Shown: piece by piece, positions 3,655-61,086 of the stretch | Layout of the letters: each line of letters begins with the position of its first letter | Position numbering within the stretch: position 1 is the stretch's first letter | Made by a program: the position numbers and the translations under genes | IMG/VR virus record: IMGVR_UViG_3300020042_013351 | Location: 16,890 to 80,889 of that record | Reading direction: 5' to 3' (one strand) | Source of the DNA: a virus | Taxonomy: Duplodnaviria > Caudoviricetes | DNA: 64,000 bases | The notes under the pieces: generated by a model | What the model saw: the letters and a program-made list of their open reading frames with translations, nothing else | Databases searched by the model: none | Told to the model about the DNA's origin: nothing

Positions 3655-3837
3655 TTACTTTTTGGGTTGTTCAACTTGTTTAATTTCAACTAAACCTCTG
3701 TGAAAGAAAGCACCACTGGCAGGATCAAACCATTGAGCTTCTACATGGATTTGTTGACCAACTAGTTTTTCTACAATTTTAGGTGTAGACATTTGGCCTG
3801 TTGGAGAAACCATTTTAACTGGGCGTACGTAATTCAT
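3655..3837 (-). CDS. small hypothetical protein
   Basis: 60-aa ORF with TAAATA-N5-ATG on the minus strand. Confidence 0.6.
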   Translation of the reverse strand: MNYVRPVKMVSPTGQMSTPKIVEKLVGQQIHVEAQWFDPASGAFFHRGLVEIKQVEQPKK

Positions 3838-15301: not shown

Positions 15302-15549
15302 ATACTACACTCATCCAACAATTGTTCCAGCTTATTTTTGCTCTGAATGCCAGAAACTCTGGTGACCTCTTTGTTGTCTTTGAAGAATATGATGGTAGGC
15401 ACTGCAGTAACCTTGAAAGGTATTTCATTGTTGGCATCCAAAAACTCATTTTCAATTTCTGGATGTTCACTGAAAAATTTCTCAATGATTGGCTTGAACA
15501 TTTTGCATGGACCACATGTACTTGTACTTACATAGTAAATTTTAATCAT
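15298..15549 (-). CDS. thioredoxin
   Basis: CGPC active site, VPTIIFFKD; start moved to MIKIYY. Confidence 0.88.
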   Translation of the reverse strand: MIKIYYVSTSTCGPCKMFKPIIEKFFSEHPEIENEFLDANNEIPFKVTAVPTIIFFKDNKEVTRVSGIQSKNKLEQLLDECSI

Positions 15550-16651
15550 TGTGTTCAATCTCCACTCCTTCTTCTGGAACATCTTCTTCAACTTTGTTGC
15601 CATAAGCCCATTCAATTTTCATTTTTTCTTCCAACTTGGGCAAAATGGTCTCTTCCCACAATTTGGTATCTTTGCGCCAATTTTTAGCATACCCCAATTT
15701 GGTACCATCAGCCAATGCATATGTTGCGCCATTTTGAATGATGATGCCCATGCCAACTGCCATGTCCAGCAATCCATAGTAACGATCCAATCCAGTTGAG
15801 AAACTCAAATACATTTCACATTCCAAATATTGTTTGATGAATCTGTTTTTTCTGGTGAGTGCTCTGATGATGATGCCACCATAATTGCGCTGACCAACTG
15901 CCAACTCATTGTTGTCAACTGTCTTGCCTCCATCATCTTTCAAAGGCTTGCGAGCCAACTGAACTGTGACAGATGGCAAATACACAACAGACTTGCCACC
16001 AGGCATATTTTTTTCAATGCTGGGATACATGGCTGTAGGATCATCATACACATGATTGGTGATGACAAATGTTGTACGTGTAACAGCACCCAAATTAGTG
16101 CATGTCTGCAGCAGTGATTTGATGGCACGGGCTTTGGTTCCCATGTCACTGCTGGTACTCTCTTTGTCCATGCGAGCCAGCTCCAGTTCAGATTGCAAAT
16201 TGCCCAATGAGTCAATGGCTACAATGAACTTGCCTTCCAAGCCTTTTTCTTTGATGCTGGTCAAAAACTTGTACACAGCATTGCGAGTCTGTTCAATGCT
16301 GATGCATGGCACATATTTTACTTTGCTGATGTCCAATCCCAATCTTGTAGCACCAGTTGGATCAATGGCTGACTCTGTGTCAAAAATGACAGGATACAAT
16401 CCCATTTTTTGAGCATTGGCCAAAATCTTCTGCACAAACAAACTTTTGCCAGTCATAGACTCTCCTGCAATCATGGTCACTCGCCCTTTGGGAATACCAC
16501 CATTGCGTGAACCTGATATGATGCTGTTGAGTACATATGATCCAGTATCAATCCACTCGCTTACAGTACTCAATGTATTGTTGCTGAGATAAGTTGCATA
16601 AGGATTAACTTCGTTGATGCTGTCAAGTGCAGCTGTAATGTCTTTGTCCAT
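15542..16651 (-). CDS. uvsX: RecA-like recombinase UvsX
   Basis: IDTGSYVLN, AGESMTGKS, FDTESA, IDSLGNL, TNHVY, PGGKS motifs. Confidence 0.93.
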   Translation of the reverse strand: MDKDITAALDSINEVNPYATYLSNNTLSTVSEWIDTGSYVLNSIISGSRNGGIPKGRVTMIAGESMTGKSLFVQKILANAQKMGLYPVIFDTESAIDPTGATRLGLDISKVKYVPCISIEQTRNAVYKFLTSIKEKGLEGKFIVAIDSLGNLQSELELARMDKESTSSDMGTKARAIKSLLQTCTNLGAVTRTTFVITNHVYDDPTAMYPSIEKNMPGGKSVVYLPSVTVQLARKPLKDDGGKTVDNNELAVGQRNYGGIIIRALTRKNRFIKQYLECEMYLSFSTGLDRYYGLLDMAVGMGIIIQNGATYALADGTKLGYAKNWRKDTKLWEETILPKLEEKMKIEWAYGNKVEEDVPEEGVEIEHND

Positions 16652-16737: not shown

Positions 16738-17088
16738 CTACTCATCAAAAAGTTTAATAACTTCTGGTGTGCCAGGAGTAATAATTGGACTTGGATTGAA
16801 GATTCTGGTGTATTGGCTGATGAGCTTTTCATCCAATTCAATGCTGGTTGCAAAGGCATTGCTGGCCTTGGCAAAGCTCCAAACTGTGCCTTGCTTCTTG
16901 CTCTCTGCAGACAACAATTCATTGAAAATCATAGGAAACAATTGCACATTGAGTTGTCCGTTTTGTGTAGGTTGAATAAACAGTGTTGCAGGATTTATGA
17001 GCTGAAAGTCATTAACTGTTTCACCTGCCAGTTCTCCCAAGATGATGCTTCCTGATGCGTCTTTAATTGCTGTAATAGTTGGTTTCAT
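16738..17088 (-). CDS. hypothetical protein (beta-rich)
   Basis: 116-aa ORF between gp43 and uvsX with a promoter-like upstream region. Confidence 0.6.
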   Translation of the reverse strand: MKPTITAIKDASGSIILGELAGETVNDFQLINPATLFIQPTQNGQLNVQLFPMIFNELLSAESKKQGTVWSFAKASNAFATSIELDEKLISQYTRIFNPSPIITPGTPEVIKLFDE

Positions 17089-22748: not shown

Positions 22749-23782
22749 CTGTATTTTCTGTAAAGTTGCAAGCAGTATTGCTCAATTTCTTGTTTATTTT
22801 CAATCTCCAGCATGGTTATGAAGTCGTGAATGGCTTGTTCAACATCAATTCCTGACAAATCTTTGCGATCATCCACATTGAGTTGTGATGCAGCACTGTT
22901 ATAATCTACACTCAACTGCAAAGGTTTGAGTGAACCTAGTTTGGTTACCAAGTAATCTGCATCTTCTGTGCTTACAACTCTGTCAATGATGAATCTGATG
23001 ATGTTGTTGTTGCACAATTTGCGTAACAACAATGCATCAACTTGATTGTTGATGAGATTTGATAATTGCAGCTTGTAAATTAGTGGTGACTGTGTATTTT
23101 TATGAAATTCAAACTCATTGAATGAACTGTCATAAATGTAAAATCCCTTGACATTGCCACAGTCATTCAAGTCTGTTTGAAAAGGGTTGCCAACATACTT
23201 GATGGTTCCTGTTTCAAACACTCTGTCATCTCTAAAGTGAAAATGCCCACTCACAATCATGGGTGATTTTTGCAGCAATTCTTTGATGTTGAATCCATGC
23301 TCACAAACTCTGAAAGAGTTCATCTTGAATGTTTGAATTTCAAAATGACCAAATATTAAATCACATTGAGGTATATCATTGACATCAAAGCCCCATGGTA
23401 CCATGCATGCATGTTTGTTGCCAATGTAAATGCTTTGCACTTTGTCAAACACACAAATGTTTTGCCAACCACTGAACATGGCAAGTGAATGCACATCAGC
23501 TTTTTCTTTGTAATAACAATCATGATTGCCTGGAATCATGAACAGTCTGAATGGCCTGAATTTGTCCAAGATCTGGCAAGCTATGTGCATGCTGTTGACT
23601 GCCACTGCATCACGATCATGAAAGAAATCACCACAAAAAATTACATCTTGTATTTTGTGGTGATGCAATTGTTGAACAAACCAATCAGCCCAGTCCAATG
23701 CAACTTTGTGCCACATGCTGCTGTTGCAGTGTACACCAATGTGCAAGTCGCTGAAAATGGCTACTTTGTTACTCAGATTCAT
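22745..23782 (-). CDS. recombination endonuclease subunit gp47 (Mre11/SbcD-like)
   Basis: FSDLHIG, GDFFH, PGNHD, FGHFE, SGHFH motifs. Confidence 0.92.
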   Translation of the reverse strand: MNLSNKVAIFSDLHIGVHCNSSMWHKVALDWADWFVQQLHHHKIQDVIFCGDFFHDRDAVAVNSMHIACQILDKFRPFRLFMIPGNHDCYYKEKADVHSLAMFSGWQNICVFDKVQSIYIGNKHACMVPWGFDVNDIPQCDLIFGHFEIQTFKMNSFRVCEHGFNIKELLQKSPMIVSGHFHFRDDRVFETGTIKYVGNPFQTDLNDCGNVKGFYIYDSSFNEFEFHKNTQSPLIYKLQLSNLINNQVDALLLRKLCNNNIIRFIIDRVVSTEDADYLVTKLGSLKPLQLSVDYNSAASQLNVDDRKDLSGIDVEQAIHDFITMLEIENKQEIEQYCLQLYRKYR

Positions 23783-24245
23783 CGTAGTATCTGTCAGAAG
23801 CATCATCACTTGTAGTTGGCTTGCTGTAAATAAACCCATTGCCTTCTGCACTGCTGGTCAGCATTTGCTTGTAATGACTTTCTCTGTAATCTTCCAGAGT
23901 TTGATGATGCTTTTTCTCTCGCTTGATTCTGTTGATGAATGCATGAAAAGCAATGGTAGTAAAATAACTGAAAGGATTACTCTCTGATGTTATGTTGTAT
24001 TTTTTATGCTTGAGAGCAGCATACATCTTCACAAGAGCATCTCCTATCATCTCATCCTTGTATGTATAGTTGATGAAGCTGGGAGAGTAACTAAGACCTT
24101 TGGCAATCTTGTTGAGATATTCTCCTAGTGTTGAGGAGCAGTTGCTGGATCCATAAAATTCTTCAATTTCCTTCTTGAAGTTTGCTGGGTCTACATAAAA
24201 TTCTTCTTTGCTGAACTTGGTTGTAGGTCTTTTAGTTTTAGACAT
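23769..24245 (-). CDS. late-transcription sigma factor (T4 gp55-like)
   Basis: FINYTYKDEMIGDA and NPFSYFTTIAFHAFINRIKREKK match gp55. Confidence 0.9.
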   Translation of the reverse strand: MSKTKRPTTKFSKEEFYVDPANFKKEIEEFYGSSNCSSTLGEYLNKIAKGLSYSPSFINYTYKDEMIGDALVKMYAALKHKKYNITSESNPFSYFTTIAFHAFINRIKREKKHHQTLEDYRESHYKQMLTSSAEGNGFIYSKPTTSDDASDRYYDESE

Positions 24246-26456: not shown

Positions 26457-26879
26457 ATGAGTGAACTCGGCCATTGGCAATACAATTCAGAAGTACCTGA
26501 TAGTTTTTATGGCTTTGTATATGAGATTACTAACCTTACCAACAACAAAGTATACATTGGCAAAAAGCAGAGTGTATTCAGACGCAAAAAAGCATTGCGC
26601 AAAGGCAAAAAGAAACGTGAAATAGTGATCAAGGAGTCTGATTGGAAAACATATACAGGCAGCAACAATGAGTTGAATAAAGACATTGCAGAGCTTGGCA
26701 AAGATAAATTTTGTTTCAACATTCTACGCTTTTGTGACAGCAAGTGGCAGCTGGCTTACTATGAAATTGAAGAACAAATCAAGCGTAATGTGTTGCTCAA
26801 TGAAAATTTTTACAATGGCATCATCAACTGCAGATTAGGCAGACCCAAAACAAAGACAGTTGATAAAGCAACACCATAG
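26457..26879 (+). CDS. GIY-YIG family endonuclease (Seg-like)
   Basis: GFVYEITNLTNNKVYIGKK, YTGS, FYNG motifs. Confidence 0.88.
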   Translation: MSELGHWQYNSEVPDSFYGFVYEITNLTNNKVYIGKKQSVFRRKKALRKGKKKREIVIKESDWKTYTGSNNELNKDIAELGKDKFCFNILRFCDSKWQLAYYEIEEQIKRNVLLNENFYNGIINCRLGRPKTKTVDKATP

Positions 26880-27418: not shown

Positions 27419-27865
27419 ATGAAAAGTAAGTTTGACTTGATTCTCAAAAATGCGCGCCTCAGATATTTGGTGCATGAACAAAATGAGCAAGAAGCAGCAG
27501 CCATTGCAGCACAATTGGGTGGTCAAGCAGCTCCAGCTGATGCACAATCTGCACTGCCTGATGCAGCCATGCCAGAGGAACCACAGGAACCAGAAGAGGC
27601 ACAGCAGATGAAAGACACAGACAAAGCTCTTTACAAGGATGCTGTTAATCATTTAGTTGAAGCTGTACATGATTTGATTATGAAGATCAAAGGAGATGAA
27701 GTGTCTATTGCAACTGTTCGATCACAATACATTGAAATCAATGACAGTGACTTCAGAGCCATCACAGGCACTGATGAAAACAACATTGCAGTCATTGTAC
27801 AAAACATAGACCAACTTGCCAACAAGATGCAATCTCCTTTTCAGCGTGATGCTATAAACTTATAA
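27419..27865 (+). CDS. hypothetical late protein
   Basis: TAAATA-N6-ATG; A/P/E/Q-rich N-terminal half. Confidence 0.65.
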   Translation: MKSKFDLILKNARLRYLVHEQNEQEAAAIAAQLGGQAAPADAQSALPDAAMPEEPQEPEEAQQMKDTDKALYKDAVNHLVEAVHDLIMKIKGDEVSIATVRSQYIEINDSDFRAITGTDENNIAVIVQNIDQLANKMQSPFQRDAINL

Positions 27866-29154
27866 TGAATAAATTCATTCCATTGTCTGATGTCTATTCT
27901 AATTTGAATGGTATATATCATGCAAAGCCTGTGTTGCCAAAACCATTTAAATCTTTGCAGGAGACATACAAACCAAGTGTACCTGTTGTGAACAAAAGAT
28001 TGTTTGTAATCTATGAAGATGTAGACATTGCTGCACATGATACTGCAAACAATGATTATGGAGAATATACAGTAGAAAAAGAGTGGTGGGACAATGTTAT
28101 TACACATTATCTTGCCATGCAAAAGAAAAATCCCAACATTGGCAGTGACATCAAAAAGCTGTTTGATTTGTGTGTAAATAAAAAAGTTATCAAAACTGCA
28201 GAGACTGACAAATATGTAAGTCAGTTGGATTACTTGACATCCATCATGAATTATATCTATGATGTTTCAGATAATGCAGGTGAAATTTTACAGAAAATGA
28301 AAAGCGAAAGTATTTCAAGTGCATTCATTTCCTTTCTAAATTCTAATGTCAACAAAAAAGCCAACTTATTTGACTGGCTTGACAATGTATACAATGCTGA
28401 TTTTGCCAAAGCTAAAGCACAAGTTATGACCAACATCTGGCAGTTGTTGCGCCCAGTAATTCCAGGTCAAACACGTGGCTATGCTGGGCCTGCAGAAGTA
28501 CCCATTATATTGTTTTGTGGTGGTAAAAAAGCTGCAGTAGGTGATATTGATATCAATGGCAAGCAGTTGGAACTCAAGACTAATCGTGGACGCATTGGTA
28601 CTTATTCTCCGTGGATTCAAAATAGAAAAGTAGTAGAAACATTCATCAATGGTTTTCAAGGTGAGCAGCCCAGCCAACCCATGAAAAAAACCAGCAATGA
28701 ACAACAGGTGCGCAACCAGATGAATGAGATTGAAGATACAGTTGTTGATTTAATTGATAATGAAGCTCTGAGAGCAGTGAGCGTACAAAGCAGTTTTGCT
28801 GATGTACCCAGCGACATTGTTGCATCTGCAAAACTGTGCAAAGAGCAAAATATAATTACAAACAAACAACAAGCAGGTGCTTTCATAGGCATTTGTCAAC
28901 TCATTGAATATGCTGCTAATCAAAAGTTTGATTGGTTGGGCATCATAAAATCCAATGCAGATGGTTTAACAAAACCAAAAATGGGAACAATGTTCATTGT
29001 TTCAAGCGCAGAGCTGGTGAGTGCAACAGATGGTTTGTATGCGCCAGATAAGATTTACAAAATCATGCAAATATTGGCTTCCAGCAACATGGGATTCGAA
29101 AAAAATTATGACAATGCTGGTTACGGCATTTCATTTAGATCACAAAAAGATTAA
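27865..29154 (+). CDS. hypothetical protein with PD-(D/E)XK-like nuclease motif
   Basis: GPAEV...GDIDINGKQLELKT. Confidence 0.55.
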   Translation: MNKFIPLSDVYSNLNGIYHAKPVLPKPFKSLQETYKPSVPVVNKRLFVIYEDVDIAAHDTANNDYGEYTVEKEWWDNVITHYLAMQKKNPNIGSDIKKLFDLCVNKKVIKTAETDKYVSQLDYLTSIMNYIYDVSDNAGEILQKMKSESISSAFISFLNSNVNKKANLFDWLDNVYNADFAKAKAQVMTNIWQLLRPVIPGQTRGYAGPAEVPIILFCGGKKAAVGDIDINGKQLELKTNRGRIGTYSPWIQNRKVVETFINGFQGEQPSQPMKKTSNEQQVRNQMNEIEDTVVDLIDNEALRAVSVQSSFADVPSDIVASAKLCKEQNIITNKQQAGAFIGICQLIEYAANQKFDWLGIIKSNADGLTKPKMGTMFIVSSAELVSATDGLYAPDKIYKIMQILASSNMGFEKNYDNAGYGISFRSQKD

Positions 29155-29837
29155 GATTGATTTGCTGAATAAAGCTTCTCAATGATGCCATCAAAATCAT
29201 TGTTCATGGGTATGCCATAGTAGTTGAAGAACGCTTGCTTGGCTTGAGTAAAGTTGTTAGCAGTTTGCAATCTTTGTCTGAACGCTGATGCTTTGTATGG
29301 TGCACCAGTGTCAGGATCCATTACATCAGCCATGACACGCACATATCCTCTGCCTTGACTTGCAGGCACTGCTGCATCACTCAAAGATTTATAAGGCTGC
29401 AAGAATGTGGGACCTGGAGTTTTGATCTTCATATTGAGACCTGTGCTTTTGTCAATGTTTTTGAATTCAAATTTTGGTTTATCAGGTGGTATGGGGTGTT
29501 GATCTTTGTATCCAACTGATATAATAAGAATGCTATCTGACGAACCCAGGTGAGCATAACTCTCGCCAGCATAAGGTGCTTTGACATTGATGATTTTATC
29601 AGCAGGGACACCCATGAGCTGAGTCATTACTTGTTGTTTTTCAACAAAACTGAGAGGACTCTTGGGCAGTTTGACTGAGTCAGATGTTGCAATATATACA
29701 CTGCCTTCACCATATTCTTCTGCAAGCTTGTCATATACAGCTCTATGATGCTTCAGCATGGGCTGAAATCTACCAGGATAAACAACTACATATTGTGGAT
29801 GTGTTTGTTCTAAAAAGAATTGTTCAAAGTTAATCAT
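29151..29837 (-). CDS. cytidylyltransferase-like nucleotidyltransferase (HIGH superfamily)
   Basis: VVYPGRFQPMLKHH, PLSFVEK, YKASAFR (KMSKS-like). Confidence 0.8.
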   Translation of the reverse strand: MINFEQFFLEQTHPQYVVVYPGRFQPMLKHHRAVYDKLAEEYGEGSVYIATSDSVKLPKSPLSFVEKQQVMTQLMGVPADKIINVKAPYAGESYAHLGSSDSILIISVGYKDQHPIPPDKPKFEFKNIDKSTGLNMKIKTPGPTFLQPYKSLSDAAVPASQGRGYVRVMADVMDPDTGAPYKASAFRQRLQTANNFTQAKQAFFNYYGIPMNNDFDGIIEKLYSANQS

Positions 29838-31105
29838 ACGTCAAAACCTATTTCTGCAAGAGATGGAATGCTGCCGCGGCGGTATCGCCGCATGCCTAAA
29901 ATTTGGTTGGCAGGTGCAAAAGCGCCTGTTATTTTGAAGAGTTTGCCTGGTGCATCTGGTGATGAGAAAACAACACCTTCCAGTGCTGATGCTACATTGC
30001 TGATGGCTTGTAACCTCTTCATATTGGATTGCAAGATTTGCATGCGCTGTTCACTGTGTGCATCTTGAGCTTGCTCCACTGCTGCAATGGTTTTTTTCAA
30101 CTCTTTATGCAAGCGCTTGATCTCAGTGCTTTGATCTTTGACAAAGAAGGATGATACACCTTGCAACACTTTGAAGCTCAATTCAAACACCAAGTCCTTG
30201 ATGGGATCAACAGCTTGTGATTGCTTTTTGAGCTTGGAGTCTAATGTACAAAAGTCAGAAACAATGCCAGCATACTCTTTGTACTTTTTCTTGAGGGACA
30301 CTGCAGTGTCTTCAGATTTTTCAGATACACACAATGCTATGTCAATGGAAGCAGCCATGGATACAACATCTTTGAGTTTTTGTTTGATTGTTGCATACAC
30401 AAAGTCTCCAATGGTGCTAGTATTGATGTCAATGCTGTATTTGGTGCAAAGTTGAGCAATGCCTTGCTCAAATTCACCGTACCCTTGCTCATCATAGTTG
30501 ATGAGTTGTGTAATTTTTGGACCAGCCCACTCCCACACTTTCTCATTTTGCTTTTCAGTCTTGTTGTCCATCAACTTGACCAGTTGATCAAAATTAGCTT
30601 GCAGCAGCAATGGCTCTTGACCTTTGGTAAATCTTGTCATACTGTGCATCACAATGTAGTTGCCAGAATATTGAATAACATTTGGATTTGAAGAATGCAT
30701 GATTTCAGCATTGACCCATGTATCACCATCATCACCAAACAATTTGCTTCTGATGTTGTCATCCAATGATTGCAATGCAGAGTTGATGACTGTGCCACCA
30801 TCTGCAAATGCAAATTCAACTGCTCCACGCCCTGCAAATTTTTGACGCAGTTGCATTAAATTCATGCCACCACTTTTTATATCTCCTGTGTTGCGTGCAA
30901 ACATGGTTTGACCTTGTTGTTCATTCCATGTAAAGAAAATATTTTGCCCATCCACCTTTTCAATGGCATTGATTTCACCTTGCATGAGGCCCTTGAACAT
31001 GTGCAGCATTGTTGAAAACGGCAAACTCATGTCTTCATACACAAACTGCATGTGACCAGCTGCACCACCTTCATTTAATATAAAAAATTTACCAAATGAT
31101 ATCAT
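29834..31105 (-). CDS. ligase-like nucleotidyltransferase-fold protein (DUF6267-like)
   Basis: EGGAAGHM; motif I EKVDG; NAEI; motif IV EGVVF; LFKITG. Confidence 0.6.
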   Translation of the reverse strand: MISFGKFFILNEGGAAGHMQFVYEDMSLPFSTMLHMFKGLMQGEINAIEKVDGQNIFFTWNEQQGQTMFARNTGDIKSGGMNLMQLRQKFAGRGAVEFAFADGGTVINSALQSLDDNIRSKLFGDDGDTWVNAEIMHSSNPNVIQYSGNYIVMHSMTRFTKGQEPLLLQANFDQLVKLMDNKTEKQNEKVWEWAGPKITQLINYDEQGYGEFEQGIAQLCTKYSIDINTSTIGDFVYATIKQKLKDVVSMAASIDIALCVSEKSEDTAVSLKKKYKEYAGIVSDFCTLDSKLKKQSQAVDPIKDLVFELSFKVLQGVSSFFVKDQSTEIKRLHKELKKTIAAVEQAQDAHSEQRMQILQSNMKRLQAISNVASALEGVVFSSPDAPGKLFKITGAFAPANQILGMRRYRRGSIPSLAEIGFDV

Positions 31106-31110
31106 TCATG

Positions 31111-31122
31111 TATTTATAAATA
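31111..31122. promoter_or_regulatory. palindromic bidirectional late promoter TATTTATAAATA
   Basis: Perfect 12-bp palindrome with the T4 late consensus TATAAATA on both strands, each copy 5 nt from a start codon (31105 minus, 31128 plus). Confidence 0.75.
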
Positions 31123-31127
31123 ATGTT

Positions 31128-31529
31128 GTGAATGACTTTGACAAACTCTATCAAAAAGCTGTAGTTATTGGGGTAAACTTGCCCATTGAGATACAAAACA
31201 TTGGAACAATCAAGGCAAAAGCTGATACAGGCAACGATGGTCACTGCGTATTGCACGGTGTAAATGTTGATTTGCAGCAAGGCACAGTATCATTTGAAAC
31301 TGTTGATGGCAAGCAAGTGCAATTTGCATGCAATGAAACCATTGATATCAACATTGGCAGCGGCAACATTGAAAAGAGACCAGTCATCAACTTGAACATA
31401 AAAATAAACGGAACACCCTATTCAAGTGTTCCGTTTTCTGTTGCTGACAGAAGCAGCAATGATGTTCCTGTTTTGCTGGGCAAGGACTTTCTTGCTCAAC
31501 ATCACTGCTTGGTGGATCCAAGCAAGTGA
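31128..31529 (+). CDS. retropepsin-like protease (RimK-associated/RimB family)
   Basis: IKAKADTGN catalytic motif; EKRPVI; VLLGKDFL; GTG start. Confidence 0.8.
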   Translation: MNDFDKLYQKAVVIGVNLPIEIQNIGTIKAKADTGNDGHCVLHGVNVDLQQGTVSFETVDGKQVQFACNETIDINIGSGNIEKRPVINLNIKINGTPYSSVPFSVADRSSNDVPVLLGKDFLAQHHCLVDPSK

Positions 31530-31532
31530 AGC

Positions 31533-32177
31533 TTAATATCGAGTCTGTGCAAATTCAATGAACTTGTAAAACTCTGCTCTGCTGGCACCACCACTGTCAT
31601 CATGAAATGCGCCACTCACACGAGCTGTGCGCATGGTTGAGTCATGCTTGATGCCTCGATTGCTGCAACATGTATGATTGGCTTCAATCATGACTGCAAC
31701 ACCCTTGTTCTTTTCACATACCATGTCAACATAATCAAATATTTGTGAAGTCAGTGCTTCTTGAACCTGTGGGCGACGAGCAAACCAGTCCACAATGCGG
31801 TTGAGCTTGCTCAGTCCAATTACTTTGCCATCTTTGGCTGGAAGATATGCAACATGAGCGCGACCCGTGAACTGCAAATGATGATGAGAACACATGGAGA
31901 CCACCTTGATGTTGTTTTGACACACCATGCCATCATAACCATCAATGTTATCAAAAGATGTAATGTCAGGTGGCGGTGAATAACAACCTGCAATGAGATC
32001 ATTCACCCATGCTTTGGCTACACGTCTGGGAGTATCAGCACTGTTGGGATCATTCTTGAAGTCAAACTTCAATGCTTTCATAAATTCAGCATAATGCACA
32101 GCTGCTTGTTCAATCATATTCTGGCGCTCTTGTTCAGATTGCGGCAGGTTACCGTTGGCGTATTTGAGTAATTCCAT
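31533..32177 (-). CDS. folE: GTP cyclohydrolase I
   Basis: DTPRRVAK, SMCSHHHLQF, GLSKLNR, RRPQVQE, HTCCSNRG. Confidence 0.95.
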   Translation of the reverse strand: MELLKYANGNLPQSEQERQNMIEQAAVHYAEFMKALKFDFKNDPNSADTPRRVAKAWVNDLIAGCYSPPPDITSFDNIDGYDGMVCQNNIKVVSMCSHHHLQFTGRAHVAYLPAKDGKVIGLSKLNRIVDWFARRPQVQEALTSQIFDYVDMVCEKNKGVAVMIEANHTCCSNRGIKHDSTMRTARVSGAFHDDSGGASRAEFYKFIEFAQTRY

Positions 32178-32223
32178 AGTTACAATGTAATGTATTATGT
32201 GCATGTTTCAACTAAATATATGT

Positions 32224-33234: not shown

Positions 33235-33264
33235 TTTATGCAATGTTGACTTCACAATGTAGTG

Positions 33265-33891
33265 ATGAAAACAAATTATATTTCTACCAAAGTCATTGAA
33301 TTAGGTTCTTGTGCATTCCGTCAATGGCGTGCCAGTCATTCACACTGCCGTCACATGCATGGTTATCAACTGAAAGCTAAATTTTGGTTTGGTTGTTCAG
33401 AATTGGATGAAAAAAACTGGTCAGTAGATTTTGGAAGTCTCAAAGAGCTCAAAGCCAAATTACAAGACACCTTTGATCATACATTGTGCGTCGCTGCAGA
33501 TGATCCATGCTTGTACATCTTTCAACAATTGCAGCAACTTGATGCTGTTGCACTGCGTGTATTTGATACAGGTGTTGGCATTGAGCGTGCAGCAGAATTC
33601 TGCTTCAATGCAGCAGCAGAATTTCTCCTGGAAAAATACGGAGATCGTTGCTGGGTTGAACAGGTAGAAGTATTTGAACATCAAGACAATTCTGTTGTAT
33701 ACAAGCCAGCAGCTGTTCAAATGCCACTTGTAGTTGTGTCAGATGCATCTGCGCCTGTAGTAGAACAAGCAGCACCACCACTGGGTCTTGCACCAGTTGC
33801 AGCACCACAACGAGTTCCAATGCCAGCACCAGTGGGTAATACTGTTACAAGCGGCAAAGGCAATTGGTTTGCAGGTACAACTTGGGGCTAA
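33265..33891 (+). CDS. queD: 6-carboxy-5,6,7,8-tetrahydropterin synthase
   Basis: HCRHMHGY, VDFGSLK, FDHTL, IERAAE, VEVFEH; A/P-rich C-terminal extension. Confidence 0.9.
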   Translation: MKTNYISTKVIELGSCAFRQWRASHSHCRHMHGYQLKAKFWFGCSELDEKNWSVDFGSLKELKAKLQDTFDHTLCVAADDPCLYIFQQLQQLDAVALRVFDTGVGIERAAEFCFNAAAEFLLEKYGDRCWVEQVEVFEHQDNSVVYKPAAVQMPLVVVSDASAPVVEQAAPPLGLAPVAAPQRVPMPAPVGNTVTSGKGNWFAGTTWG

Positions 33892-34637
33892 CATTTCAGT
33901 TTGCGTACAATGAATTTGAGAATTTGTGAACGCACAATCTCATTTTCACCAAACTTGCAGACATGAATGTTATTCTCCTGGCTTTCCTCATCGTCAAAAC
34001 AACGCACGATGTCTGGAAAGCCAGATTTGTTTCCAATGTCGCTCTGTTGAGTATCACCAATGACCACATATCGTGAGTTGTGACCAAATCTGGTCAAGAT
34101 GGTAACAATTTCACTTTTGGTAAGATTTTGAGATTCATCAATGATGACCAAAGAGTCATGAAATGTTAATCCTCTGACAAAATTGACAGGGATACACTTG
34201 ATGAGACCATCTTCTATCAAGGATGCAGCAACAGTTGGTACTACCAACTCATGCAATTTATCCAGCATGGGTAAACTCCATGGCTTGAATTTTTCATCCA
34301 CTTCACCTGGCAATGCACCAATGCTTTTGGTAGCAGATTCAACAATGCTGCGAATGTAGATAATTTGTTTGACCTGTTTGGCTTGCAACAATGTAAGACC
34401 TGCTAAAACAGCAATGTATGTCTTGGCTGTACCAGCACTGCCATCAACAAATACCATTTTTGTCTTGTTGTATATACACAAATCTAAAAATGTTTGATGC
34501 ACTTGATTGAGCGTATATTTGTTGCGTATACCCAGACCACCTTTGGCATTTGTTGATGCACTCTCTGAGGGATGTAGAACTTCATCCAGGTCGTCCAACT
34601 CTTCTAAACTGCGTCGAAGCCGGCGTTTTTTGCTCAT
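33888..34637 (-). CDS. phoH: PhoH family protein
   Basis: GSAGTAKT, PGEVDEK, RGLTF, IDESQN, GDTQQSD. Confidence 0.92.
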   Translation of the reverse strand: MSKKRRLRRSLEELDDLDEVLHPSESASTNAKGGLGIRNKYTLNQVHQTFLDLCIYNKTKMVFVDGSAGTAKTYIAVLAGLTLLQAKQVKQIIYIRSIVESATKSIGALPGEVDEKFKPWSLPMLDKLHELVVPTVAASLIEDGLIKCIPVNFVRGLTFHDSLVIIDESQNLTKSEIVTILTRFGHNSRYVVIGDTQQSDIGNKSGFPDIVRCFDDEESQENNIHVCKFGENEIVRSQILKFIVRKLKC

Positions 34638-34712: not shown

Positions 34713-35486
34713 ATGAATAATCTTGATTTTGACCCTGCACAAGAAACTATCTTTTTATCTGATGATCGCTTATTTTATACGATTGAGGGAGAAGGTGAAT
34801 ACATTGGTCAACCATCTGTTTTCATGAGAATGTCCATGTGCAATCTCACTTGCAAGGGCTTTGCTTCAGAAAGTTCACCTCATGGTTGTGACTCATATGT
34901 TTCATGGTCTGTAAAGAACAAGATGACATTTGAAAGCATATGGAATGAGTTCTTTGTTAAACAGAAGTTTGCAGATAAACTAAACAGTGGTGCTATTCTC
35001 AAATATACTGGTGGAGAGCCTATGATTCAACAAAAGCAATTGATCAAGTTTACTGAGTATCTGGTGCAGCAACTGGGCATGCATCCCAAAATTGACTTTG
35101 AAACCAATGCAACATTGATGCCAGATGAAGCATGGGTAAAAGATTTCAATGCCAGTTTTACTACATCACCTAAACTGACAACCAATGGAGATGCAGAGAG
35201 TAAAACATATGTTGCAGAGGTGCTGCGCTGGCATGCTCGACATTACAGCGGTTTTAAGTTTGTCATCAACAGTGACAAAGACATTGAAGAAGTTTGGCGC
35301 AAGTATGTGGAAGATGACAAAGGCATCAATGTGGATACCAACAGAATTTGGTTTATGCCTTGTTGTGGATCACGTCAAGAGCACATTGAGCGAGCCCCTG
35401 CAATTGCTGAATATGCTAAAGCAATGAACGTCAATTTTAGTCCGCGGCTGCATTTGCTGGTTTGGGACAAGGCATTGCGTGTCTAA
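34713..35486 (+). CDS. queE: 7-carboxy-7-deazaguanine synthase (radical SAM)
   Basis: FYTIEGEG, CNLTC...GCDS, TGGEP, ETN, SPKL, KFV, SPRLHLLVW. Confidence 0.92.
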   Translation: MNNLDFDPAQETIFLSDDRLFYTIEGEGEYIGQPSVFMRMSMCNLTCKGFASESSPHGCDSYVSWSVKNKMTFESIWNEFFVKQKFADKLNSGAILKYTGGEPMIQQKQLIKFTEYLVQQLGMHPKIDFETNATLMPDEAWVKDFNASFTTSPKLTTNGDAESKTYVAEVLRWHARHYSGFKFVINSDKDIEEVWRKYVEDDKGINVDTNRIWFMPCCGSRQEHIERAPAIAEYAKAMNVNFSPRLHLLVWDKALRV

Positions 35487-56428: not shown

Positions 56429-56899
56429 ATGACTATTAAGTGTACATGCTGTAAAAAAGATATAGTAAGATGGAAGTATGAAATTGACAAGATCAAAGAT
56501 ATAAATGCTTATTGTTGTAAGCAATGCAAATCTGAACAATCTAAAGAAGTAAGGGTATGTCCTGTATGCAATGAAAGCTTTTCTGTATACAAGAAAGAGA
56601 AAAAAATAACATGCTCTTATTCTTGCGCAAATAAACATTTTAGAATGGGGGAAAATCACGGAAATTGGAAGCAAGATGCTTATAGAAGCACTTGCTTTCT
56701 TTATCATAAAAAGCAATGCATAATTTGCAATGAAAGTAATATTGTTGAAGTACACCATTATAATGAGAATCATGATGATAATTCACCTGAAAATTTAGTA
56801 CCATTATGCCCTACTCATCACACATATATGCATAGTAGGTTTAAGACAACAATTTCTTCAATTGTAGATGAATATGTTAATAATTTCAACAGGATATAG
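56429..56899 (+). mobile_element. free-standing HNH homing endonuclease gene
   Basis: CIICNESNIVEVHH...N...NLVPLCPTHH; N-terminal Zn fingers; flanked by the direct repeat. Confidence 0.85.
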
Positions 56900-58477: not shown

Positions 58478-59206
58478 ATGGATCGATCCTTATGCAAAAC
58501 ATGTAAACAGCCTATTGCTAGTGAATGGAGATCTGATAGATCAACAATAAAAAATAACCCTTTAATTTATTGTTCACGAAAGTGCAGTAACAGTAGAGGT
58601 AAAAGGTCAGAAGAAGTTAAAAATAAAATAGCCAACACGCTCAAACAAAAACCTAGAACAGCAAAGCCAGTTCAGAATTCTTGTATTGTGTGTGGTGACG
58701 TTTTTGAAACATCTTCTTCAAAGAGAAGAAAAACGTGCAATAAAACTTGTAAAAACTACTGGCATTCACTCAAGCGTCAAGAATACATAAAAGAGCATGG
58801 TTCATTTTCAACATTAAGAGAGATATTTACATACAAATCAACTACGATTGATGTGGATTCAAATCTTGAAAAGGCAGGTATTGTATATCTAACAGATATA
58901 CTTGGAGCAAAAAGAATTGAAAGATTTTACAGCATTTTAAACTTCTGGGAAGGAGATGCACATAGAACTTTTAATCCTGATTTTATATGTAGATTAAAGA
59001 ATGGAAGAACAGCATTAGCAGAAGTAAAGCAAAAATGGATTCAGAGCTCTGATCATGATTATAATAGAACAATACCACTAAAAAAGAAAGTGCTTGAAGA
59101 ATATTGCAGTGTGTGTGATTATGACATGTTGTGGCTTGACTTTGATAATGCTCCAGAAATGAAACAAATTTATAAAAAGATTTTAGTTGAACGAAACGAT
59201 AAATAG
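58478..59206 (+). mobile_element. free-standing endonuclease with Zn fingers and TnsA-like PD-(D/E)XK domain
   Basis: CKTC, YCSRKCSN, CIVC; HRTFNPDFI...ALAEVK; TATAAATA-N5-ATG. Confidence 0.7.
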
Positions 59207-60642: not shown

Positions 60643-61086
60643 ATGAATAAAGATTCACAATTGTTGGGAGAAGCGTATAATGAAGTAAAGATTAATGAAG
60701 CTTTTAGTAGTTTTGTGATCTCACCGGAAGCATCAAATGTAATGTTACAGCTAGCTGGTGGTAATAAAATTTTAGCTGTAATTTATCTTTTATTAGCGTA
60801 TGTTGGTATACCTGGATTATTAATGGCATATGCATCATATGGTATGCAGGATATTAAAAATTTTGCTAGCAAAATTTGGGCTGGTATTAGAGGTCGATTA
60901 TCTCTAAACCCAGAAGATGTAATACAAGCAGCTAGTAAACTTAAACAAACTTTAAATGGACCTGAAAAAGGAAAAATTACCAGTCTAGTTAATAAAATGA
61001 AACATTATATTGATAATGGTAAAATAGCAGAAGCTCAACAAATAGCTGATGAATTAAAATTATTTTTTACAAAAACAGAAGAATAA
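60643..61086 (+). CDS. hypothetical membrane-associated late protein
   Basis: TAAATA-N5-ATG; hydrophobic segment ILAVIYLLLAYVGIPGLLMAY. Confidence 0.65.
   Translation: MNKDSQLLGEAYNEVKINEAFSSFVISPEASNVMLQLAGGNKILAVIYLLLAYVGIPGLLMAYASYGMQDIKNFASKIWAGIRGRLSLNPEDVIQAASKLKQTLNGPEKGKITSLVNKMKHYIDNGKIAEAQQIADELKLFFTKTEE

Follow-up and report, generated by a model that had tools for sequence, protein, structure and literature searches.

Several described systems resemble parts of the locus analyzed here. In bacteriophage T4 the prohead protease gp21 has the specificity L/I-X-E. Alt and other proteins packaged into the head are shortened by the removal of N-terminal propeptides, which range from 7 to 65 residues, and a capsid-targeting sequence (CTS) need be no longer than 10 residues (PMC9026906). 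RNA ligases (T4 Rnl1 and Rnl2, REL1, the ligase domain of Trl1, and the Naegleria and archaeal Rnl enzymes) and small-molecule adenylyltransferases (NadM, archaeal nicotinamide mononucleotide (NMN) adenylyltransferase, NMNAT, and phosphopantetheine adenylyltransferase, PPAT) are the closest structural counterparts of the two proteins considered in this study. These are encoded by adjacent genes in a 64,000-nt stretch of viral DNA (hereafter the window; positions 16,890 to 80,889 of IMG/VR record IMGVR_UViG_3300020042_013351, Duplodnaviria; Caudoviricetes), which is part of an 80.9-kb virus record rated 38% complete. One protein is ligase-like (LIG) and the other is cytidylyltransferase-like (CT). 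The data presented here suggest that LIG and CT act as one unit and that, as separate genes, they are the split version of a two-enzyme module that is conserved in T4-like phages and practically confined to viruses. Unlike the described systems, the pair joins an RNA-ligase fold with an inserted helical module and a putatively processed N-terminus to an NMNAT/PPAT-like enzyme, probably as capsid cargo.

LIG and CT are taken as one unit because 70 of 82 loci encode them as a single polypeptide, with either domain first. A tally of these loci with family hidden Markov models (HMMs) gave 46 fusions in the order LIG-CT, 24 in the order CT-LIG and 3 adjacent pairs, while 2 loci had CT elsewhere in the locus and 7 had no CT, 3 of these 7 being at contig ends. 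It should be noted that more than 575 IMG/VR loci were confirmed for LIG and that the 80 that were fetched were the best-scoring ones, not a random sample. The first protein search returned stand-alone LIG forms of about 420 aa together with forms of 615-733 aa that carry PF01467, and in Microcystis phage Mel-JY01 one 639-aa protein has CT at its N-terminus and LIG at its C-terminus. The LIG family comprises 2,358 clusters at 50% identity (E <=0.001), and a search of 185,579 species genomes gave 3 matches, all on short contigs of metagenome-assembled genomes. A nucleotide search of the LIG/CT region against 50,697 phage records gave no match, and a literature search (RNA-ligase/cytidylyltransferase or NMNAT fusion, DUF6267, Mel-JY01) found no paper describing the module. 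The phage itself carries T4-type replication, recombination and late-transcription genes, namely a gp43-like polymerase, a gp46/47-like nuclease, UvsX, UvsY, a gp41-like helicase and a gp55-like late sigma factor.

The surroundings of the module in related loci were compared as well, and the resulting neighbor counts do not separate shared synteny from functional linkage. Terminase is a neighbor of LIG-CT in 29 loci, and the Mel-JY01 gene lies in the head-gene region, upstream of terminase and protease genes. PIN-PhoH (PF02562 plus PIN_4) is a neighbor of LIG-CT in 26 of the related loci; only PhoH is present in the window. Other recurrent neighbors in one marine lineage are a trypsin-like peptidase (24 loci), an exonuclease and a GT4 glycosyltransferase (examples of neighbor positions are L025:11199-12638 and L025:5322-6212). 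Among relatives of 850-1,400 aa the only additional Pfam domains were CT, plus M23 in one protein and DUF4116 in another. The M23 domain type is common in virion-borne lysins. A metagenomic representative of 1,288 aa (P0260) has an M23 peptidase at residues 61-154, the LIG domain at 623-1032 and the CT motif from 1050, and it looks like a virion polyprotein.

Window LIG had no match in Pfam, PHROG or NCBIfam, or to solved structures by sequence or profile search, and PF09414 (RNA_ligase) was matched weakly, at E 0.003 or worse, by 10 of 56 relatives. The AlphaFold (AF2) model of LIG has a predicted local distance difference test score (pLDDT) of 90.9 and a predicted template modeling score (pTM) of 0.86, with disorder confined to residues 1-15. 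The nucleotidyltransferase core occupies approximately residues 15-195 and 375-405. In the alignment of 56 homologues G13, G17, H18, E49, K50, D52, G53, R71, Y146, H154, E376, G377, V379, K391, T393 and G394 are invariant, and E134 is conserved in at least 90%. Motif I reads E49-K50-V-D52-G53, with E376-G377-V-V379 (EGVV) and K391 downstream; the residues of motifs III, IIIa, IV and V were assigned by position, without residue-level superposition. In a structure search (VIA; 48,161 representative chains) the 11 best matches were RNA ligases or their close kin over about 190-225 residues, with Z-scores of 9.3 for REL1, 9.1-9.0 for Trl1, 8.7 for Rnl2, 8.6 for Rnl1, 8.6 for Naegleria Rnl and 7.8-7.5 for archaeal Rnl. 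Lower Z-scores were obtained in the same search for DNA ligases (about 6) and for capping enzymes (about 5). The top Protein Data Bank matches of the model in Foldseek were also RNA ligases, and a viral structure library returned family members first, then a 591-aa 'cytidyltransferase-like' protein of S-PM2, then many annotated viral RNA ligases. The model thus supports membership of LIG in the covalent nucleotidyltransferase (ligase) superfamily by fold, and an RNA ligase assignment is favored because RNA ligases outrank both DNA ligases and capping enzymes structurally.

LIG shares with the RNA ligases the fold, the motif I lysine and the placement of motifs IV and V, and it has no OB domain and carries a helical accessory module, as many RNA ligases do. 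It differs from them in several respects. The helical module, of about 160 residues (approximately 206-365), is inserted before motif IV and not appended, an invariant GGxxGH is present at the N-terminus, no sequence-profile link was found for the window protein, and the partner is a HIGH adenylyltransferase rather than kinase/phosphatase healing domains.

The first 90 residues of CT match phage 'cytidyltransferase' PHROGs (phrog_395, E 2e-8). The window protein gave no PF01467 match and only 18.5 bits against NCBIfam NF003787 (cut-off 449); PF01467 was matched by CT relatives, and the CT family profile reaches NadM and archaeal NMN adenylyltransferases (2qjt, E 8.7e-5; 1f9a, E 8.9e-4). The AF2 model (pLDDT 91.7) gave VIA Z-scores of 10.7 with NadM, 10.4 with PPAT and 10.1 with M. 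jannaschii NMNAT, compared with 9-10 for NadD enzymes and about 8.5 for cytidylyltransferases. Because the NadM, PPAT and NMNAT scores exceed those of the cytidylyltransferases, CT is therefore predicted from its modeled fold, the Rossmann-like HUP fold known from adenylyl- and cytidylyltransferases, to be an adenylyltransferase-class HIGH enzyme, with NMNAT and PPAT tied. It resembles NadM, archaeal NMNAT and PPAT in fold (Z 10-10.7) and in its motifs (GRFQPxHxGH-type, SPFxFxEK and SxxxR), and the C-terminal phosphate-binding SxxxxR motif is represented by S-A-F-R187; of 52 sequences, at least 90% retain R187. It differs from these enzymes in scoring far under the family cut-offs, in an extra segment at approximately residues 115-160, in having no visible Nudix or Nampt partner, and in the LKHH of the window clade. 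The HIGH signature of window CT is degenerate, GRFQPM-LKHH as opposed to canonical HxGH, with LKHH at residues 28-31 in the window protein and its close relatives; only the last His (H31) is conserved. Approximately 44 family members have canonical (H/T)xGH. LKHH nevertheless looks like a tolerated variant rather than decay, because the GxHH form recurs in 24 family members, though it is still a caveat.

One further relative of CT has a different partner. Gp182 of Flavobacterium phage vB_FspM_immuto_3-5A (L087:4566-7289; 907 aa, annotated NMNAT/NadR) contains a CT-subfamily domain (E 1.7e-23) fused, in place of LIG, to an N-terminal Pol-beta-type nucleotidyltransferase motif (GDLDIIV). By analogy, this fusion hints at a polymer end, or a shared nucleotide product, as a common theme.

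A processing signature that precedes GGxxGH is new here. Among 320 LIG family sequences, 165 begin M-GG. In the other 155 the residue immediately before the invariant GGxxGH (P1) is Glu in 144 (93%), and P3 is Leu or Ile in 139. This (L/I)-x-E signature is shared by short leading peptides, by extensions of 90-120 aa and by complete CT domains, as at the CT-LIG junction. Window LIG begins with MISFGKFFILNE directly before GG, that is, ...I-L-N-E and then GG, and window CT begins with MINFEQFFLE followed by Q. In the CT family [LIVM]xE is most frequent 10-12 residues upstream of GxFxP, being present in 71 of 151 contexts, within a Glu-rich region. (L/I)xE before GG cannot be needed for folding, because 165 of 320 members lack it, and its near-invariance upstream of GG where it does occur would be best explained by a need to expose a Gly N-terminus. 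The cleavage motif points to a head-maturation protease, and of 17 carrier records 11 encode a gp21-family prohead protease (PF03420, Peptidase_S77), among them every one of the 6 with a completeness of 77% or more. The arrangement is similar to that of T4 Alt and IPI-III in its short N-terminal propeptide ending in L/I-x-E, in late expression, and in the presumed delivery of an enzyme together with the DNA. It differs in that folds and chemistry are unrelated, packaging is a prediction, and many members would have to be excised from a two-domain polyprotein.

Additional evidence for delivery comes from cyanophages, where a related arrangement is found. The protein-atlas language-model neighbors of LIG carry the Pfam domain DUF6267 (PF19782), with a feature score of 0.96-0.97. 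LIG was considered as a member of DUF6267 and rejected, since the DUF6267 HMM (cut-off 27 bits) had no match in the record of the window or in five LIG-bearing records, while the positive control, gene 141 of S-SZBM1, gave 434.7 bits (E 1.7e-131), and hhalign of LIG against DUF6267 was negative with both a single sequence and a 59-sequence profile (probability 0.3%). The two share seven collinear motifs: HLxHLxE near the N-terminus, KxDG (at residue 50 in both), PNxIxY, IVxH, EGxV, Lys and FxxAN. As in the window, a ligase-like protein of about 400 aa is directly followed by a CT-subfamily gene, and this was the case in 79 of 79 DUF6267 loci. The 'cytidylyltransferase' S-SZBM1_140, next to gene 141, matches the CT family HMM (E 4.6e-19) and starts MRFRQFIIE followed by A; BLAST from window CT or from P0131 gave no link to cyanophage cytidylyltransferases, so the link is seen with the family HMM only. 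DUF6267 differs from LIG in starting MAKNTH, with neither an LxE propeptide nor a GG start. LIG and DUF6267 are probably distant sisters. Genes 139 and 140 of S-SZBM1 were both in the purified-virion proteome (PMC9146016), and a cytidylyltransferase was likewise detected by mass spectrometry in S-CREM2 virions (PMC10665884). S-SZBM1 gene 139 (genes 139-141, L089:2989-6671) encodes a 457-aa low-complexity protein rich in Ala, Gly, Ser and Lys. From the LIG signature, the gp21-type proteases in carriers and these cyanophage proteomes together, we infer that LIG and CT are packaged in the capsid and ejected, which is well motivated.

The control region is also consistent with late expression. LIG and a retropepsin-like protease gene diverge from a 22-nt intergenic region that contains a perfect 12-bp palindrome, TATTTATAAATA. 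By virtue of this palindrome the T4 late box, TATAAATA, lies 5 nt before each of the two start codons. These boxes are credible because a gp55-like late sigma factor is encoded in the window (Table 1). The intergenic region is 100% conserved in a relative (L083). The exact TATAAATA octamer is not enriched across the window (6 found, 3.2 expected). TAAATA stands exactly 5 nt before the start in seven window genes, and Shine-Dalgarno sequences, judged by eye, are rare before window start codons; leaderless late transcripts would therefore be the natural reading of the box-to-start spacing. This suggests that leaderless mRNAs may be widespread in this phage and that its host translates such mRNAs well. 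Many other window genes have a TATAAT-like box 6-8 nt upstream of the start; window genes in the start-codon survey include 3655-3837(-), 15542-16651(-), 56429-56899(+), 58478-59206(+) and 60643-61086(+). The ATGA overlap of the LIG stop and the CT start is predicted to couple the two genes translationally.

The initial annotation, which had been made from the sequence, described much of this correctly. The gene positions that it gave were confirmed on the sequence, and the KxDG, EGxV and Lys motifs of its ligase-superfamily protein are real, being invariant in 56 homologues and in agreement with the fold. The coupling that it proposed to a HIGH-family nucleotidyltransferase agrees with the ATGA overlap, although that fold is seen by model and the motif is degenerate. 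The palindromic late promoter that it placed between the divergent genes is present along with the gp55-type sigma factor, and both N-termini that it called capsid-targeting-like do resemble a CTS. Its suggestion of virion delivery gains support from the signature before GG, from the gp21-type proteases and from the cyanophage virion proteomes. Its three-gene module fared less well. The functional link between LIG and CT stands, as does their co-occurrence across phages (fused in 70 and adjacent in 3 of 82 loci), and the protease is unlinked. The protease matches PF05618 with 35 bits (cut-off 27), has A-D-T-G at residues 32-35 and LLGKDFL near its C-terminus, and matches NCBIfam RimB/RloA below threshold. 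No homologue was found in any of the 80 related loci (phmmer against 4,490 open reading frames from these loci and the window), and the sole IMG/VR match is in an 88-91% identical phage with the same layout (L083). The protease was thus rejected as a conserved partner, and the trio appears to be a local arrangement in which the protease is not part of the unit, because it is absent from the 80 loci and present in a near-identical phage only.

Taken together, the balance of evidence tips slightly towards an account in which LIG and CT are a coupled late pair that is processed, packed in the capsid, injected and active at infection onset. LIG and CT would be made late and translationally coupled, and their transcript would begin 5 nt downstream of the TATAAATA box and be leaderless. 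A gp21-type head-maturation protease would remove the propeptides ending in x-x-Glu inside the prohead and leave LIG with a free Gly-Gly-x-x-Gly-His end, and both proteins would be carried in the capsid and delivered into the cell along with the DNA, in the manner of T4 Alt. LIG would take a nucleotide, probably AMP, onto Lys50 and pass it to a 5'-phosphate end, sealing or adenylylating RNA, while CT would use ATP to transfer AMP to a small phosphorylated molecule resembling NMN or to a 5'-phosphate. At the very start of infection RNA ends could thereby be mended or modified and an adenylylated dinucleotide such as NAD+ supplied, against host nuclease or NAD-depleting defenses. This specific role, RNA-end sealing or adenylylation plus adenylylated dinucleotide synthesis at infection onset, is a tentative proposal that we consider possible and not probable. 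RNA is favored as the substrate because RNA ligases top the structural matches and because PIN-PhoH recurs as a neighbor, though shared synteny weakens the latter argument.

Several observations weigh against this account. The structural Z-score of LIG, about 9, is moderate, and sequence profiles reach no solved ligase. Window CT lacks the first His of the HIGH motif, though 24 relatives share a GxHH form. In the propeptide of CT, P3 is Phe (F-L-E), and [LIVM]xE before CT occurs within Glu-rich linkers and in only the 71 of 151 contexts. Half of the LIG family has no propeptide, so packaging cannot everywhere need an N-terminal targeting peptide. Neither a gp21 protease nor a gp23 capsid gene was found in the phage's own 81-kb fragment, a negative that carries little weight at 38% completeness, and no end-healing kinase (Pnkp-type) or phosphatase and no Nampt were found there either, so that the fragment shows no complete pathway of RNA repair or of NAD salvage. 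Finally, the S-SZBM1_140 and S-CREM2 virion detections rest on 2-3 peptides, and the authors caution about carry-over (PMC9146016, PMC10665884).

Some of these observations would also fit a model in which LIG and CT are cytoplasmic late enzymes that are never packaged, for example an RNA ligase and a cofactor-making helper acting late in infection, with (L/I)xE as a structural or catalytic element at a domain boundary. Half of the family has no N-terminal extension, no head genes are visible in the fragment, and the likely sister DUF6267 starts MAKNTH without LxE and is not listed in the S-SZBM1 virion proteome. However, 165 of 320 members do without the motif, which they could not if the fold required it. 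LIG residues 1-15 are modeled as disordered, and the motif fits gp21 specificity exactly and marks internal CT-LIG junctions too. Additionally, carrier genomes encode a gp21-type protease, and the gene stands beside terminase, portal and protease genes in many loci, so we regard a purely cytoplasmic role as rather unlikely. Cleavage could also be assigned to the retropepsin-like protease as a dedicated maturase of LIG and CT, as the initial annotation had it, with all three genes co-regulated from the palindrome. The divergent arrangement from one 12-bp palindrome is conserved in L083, and RimB-type retropepsins act on glutamate-rich sequences (PMC11957791), while the predicted cuts follow Glu. 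However, no homologue of this protease occurs in the 80 LIG loci, its IMG/VR match is confined to the 88-91% identical phage, and LxE before GG is universal across lineages that lack this protease and have gp21-type proteases. The motif points to a head-maturation protease rather than to a retropepsin, and a maturase role is extremely unlikely.

Different chemistry is conceivable as well. The module may modify nucleic-acid 5' ends or proteins instead of repairing RNA, by adenylylated or cofactor-type RNA caps, for which CT would take RNA with a 5'-triphosphate or monophosphate instead of ATP or NMN, by adenylylated ends that shield the injected genome, or by AMPylation of host proteins. Both domains catalyze phosphate attack on a nucleotide alpha-phosphate, the Pol-beta-like partner of CT in immuto gp182 suggests a polymer end as the common substrate, healing enzymes were not found in the neighborhood, and a strict need for a free Gly N-terminus is not explained by classical ligase chemistry. 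Against this, the best structural matches of LIG are true sealing ligases, which score above capping enzymes, and CT is closest to small-molecule adenylyltransferases, which makes end or protein modification quite unlikely. A more elaborate version, which we offer as a long shot, is that the pair is a capsid-delivered machine for RNA 5' ends. LIG would hold and adenylylate 5'-phosphate RNA, and CT would take the RNA end as nucleotide substrate, building NAD- or other cofactor-type caps post-transcriptionally, or would supply an NAD-dependent ligase with its cofactor, so that RNAs are marked or rescued within seconds of the onset of infection. The active site would include the free Gly-Gly N-terminus, and because only cleavage by the head protease would produce this end, the enzyme would be switched on in the capsid.

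With the account of a processed and ejected pair, a very large family of phage-only proteins (approximately 2,360 clusters at 50% identity) that had no annotation acquires a fold, a partner and a probable site of action. If the signature before GGxxGH is real, T4-like phages of lakes and oceans would routinely inject a ligase-type enzyme and an adenylyltransferase. This would be a second class of ejected enzyme besides ADP-ribosyltransferases such as Alt, and it would explain the 'cytidylyltransferase' that recurs in cyanophage virion proteomes. That a Gly-Gly-x-x-Gly-His N-terminus is so strictly exposed hints at activation by proteolysis. The family would also provide new RNA-ligase-like enzymes for biochemistry, with a possible function in counter-defense against RNA-cleaving or NAD-depleting immunity.

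Table 1. Positions of the LIG/CT genes, their sequence elements and associated features in the window.
Feature	Position	Strand	Description and basis
LIG	29834..31105	-	RNA-ligase-fold covalent nucleotidyltransferase (predicted), 423 aa; AF2 model, structure search, invariant motifs
CT	29151..29837	-	HIGH-fold adenylyltransferase-like, NMNAT/PPAT class, 228 aa; phrog_395 E 2e-8, profile matches, AF2 fold
ATGA stop/start overlap of LIG and CT	29834..29837	-	Read directly as GT-ATGA-TT
Lys50 codon	30956..30958	-	Predicted nucleotidyl-accepting lysine of motif I (EKVDG); invariant in 56/56 homologues
LIG codons 1-12 (MISFGKFFILNE)	31070..31105	-	Putative capsid-targeting propeptide, L-x-E end before GGxxGH; residues 1-15 pLDDT <50, family signature
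CT codons 1-10 (MINFEQFFLE)	29808..29837	-	CTS-like N-terminus ending x-L-E; 11 residues before GxFxP motif
Palindrome TATTTATAAATA	31111..31122	.	Overlapping pair of T4-type late-promoter boxes, both at a distance of 5 nt from a start codon
Protease	31128..31529	+	Retropepsin-like (RimB/PF05618-type) aspartic protease, 133 aa, GTG start; PF05618 35 bits
gp55-like late sigma factor	23769..24245	-	phrog_234, E 3.7e-26
PhoH-like ATPase	33888..34637	-	Recurrent LIG-CT neighbor; neighbor clustering of related loci

Other genes lie around the module. A gene for a 429-aa protein without a family match, 27865-29154(+), converges on CT, and the stop regions of the two overlap by 4 nt. GTP cyclohydrolase I, 31533-32204(-), a QueD-like synthase, 33262-33891(+), and a likely QueE-type protein, 34713-35486(+), named from its translation alone, flank the module. 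The presence of these three genes suggests that the phage probably makes a 7-deazaguanine base; no link between them and LIG/CT was found in relatives. Additionally, a SegE-type GIY-YIG homing endonuclease, 26457-26879(+), matching PF19835 with E 5.5e-32, is located between the recombination genes and the late cluster.

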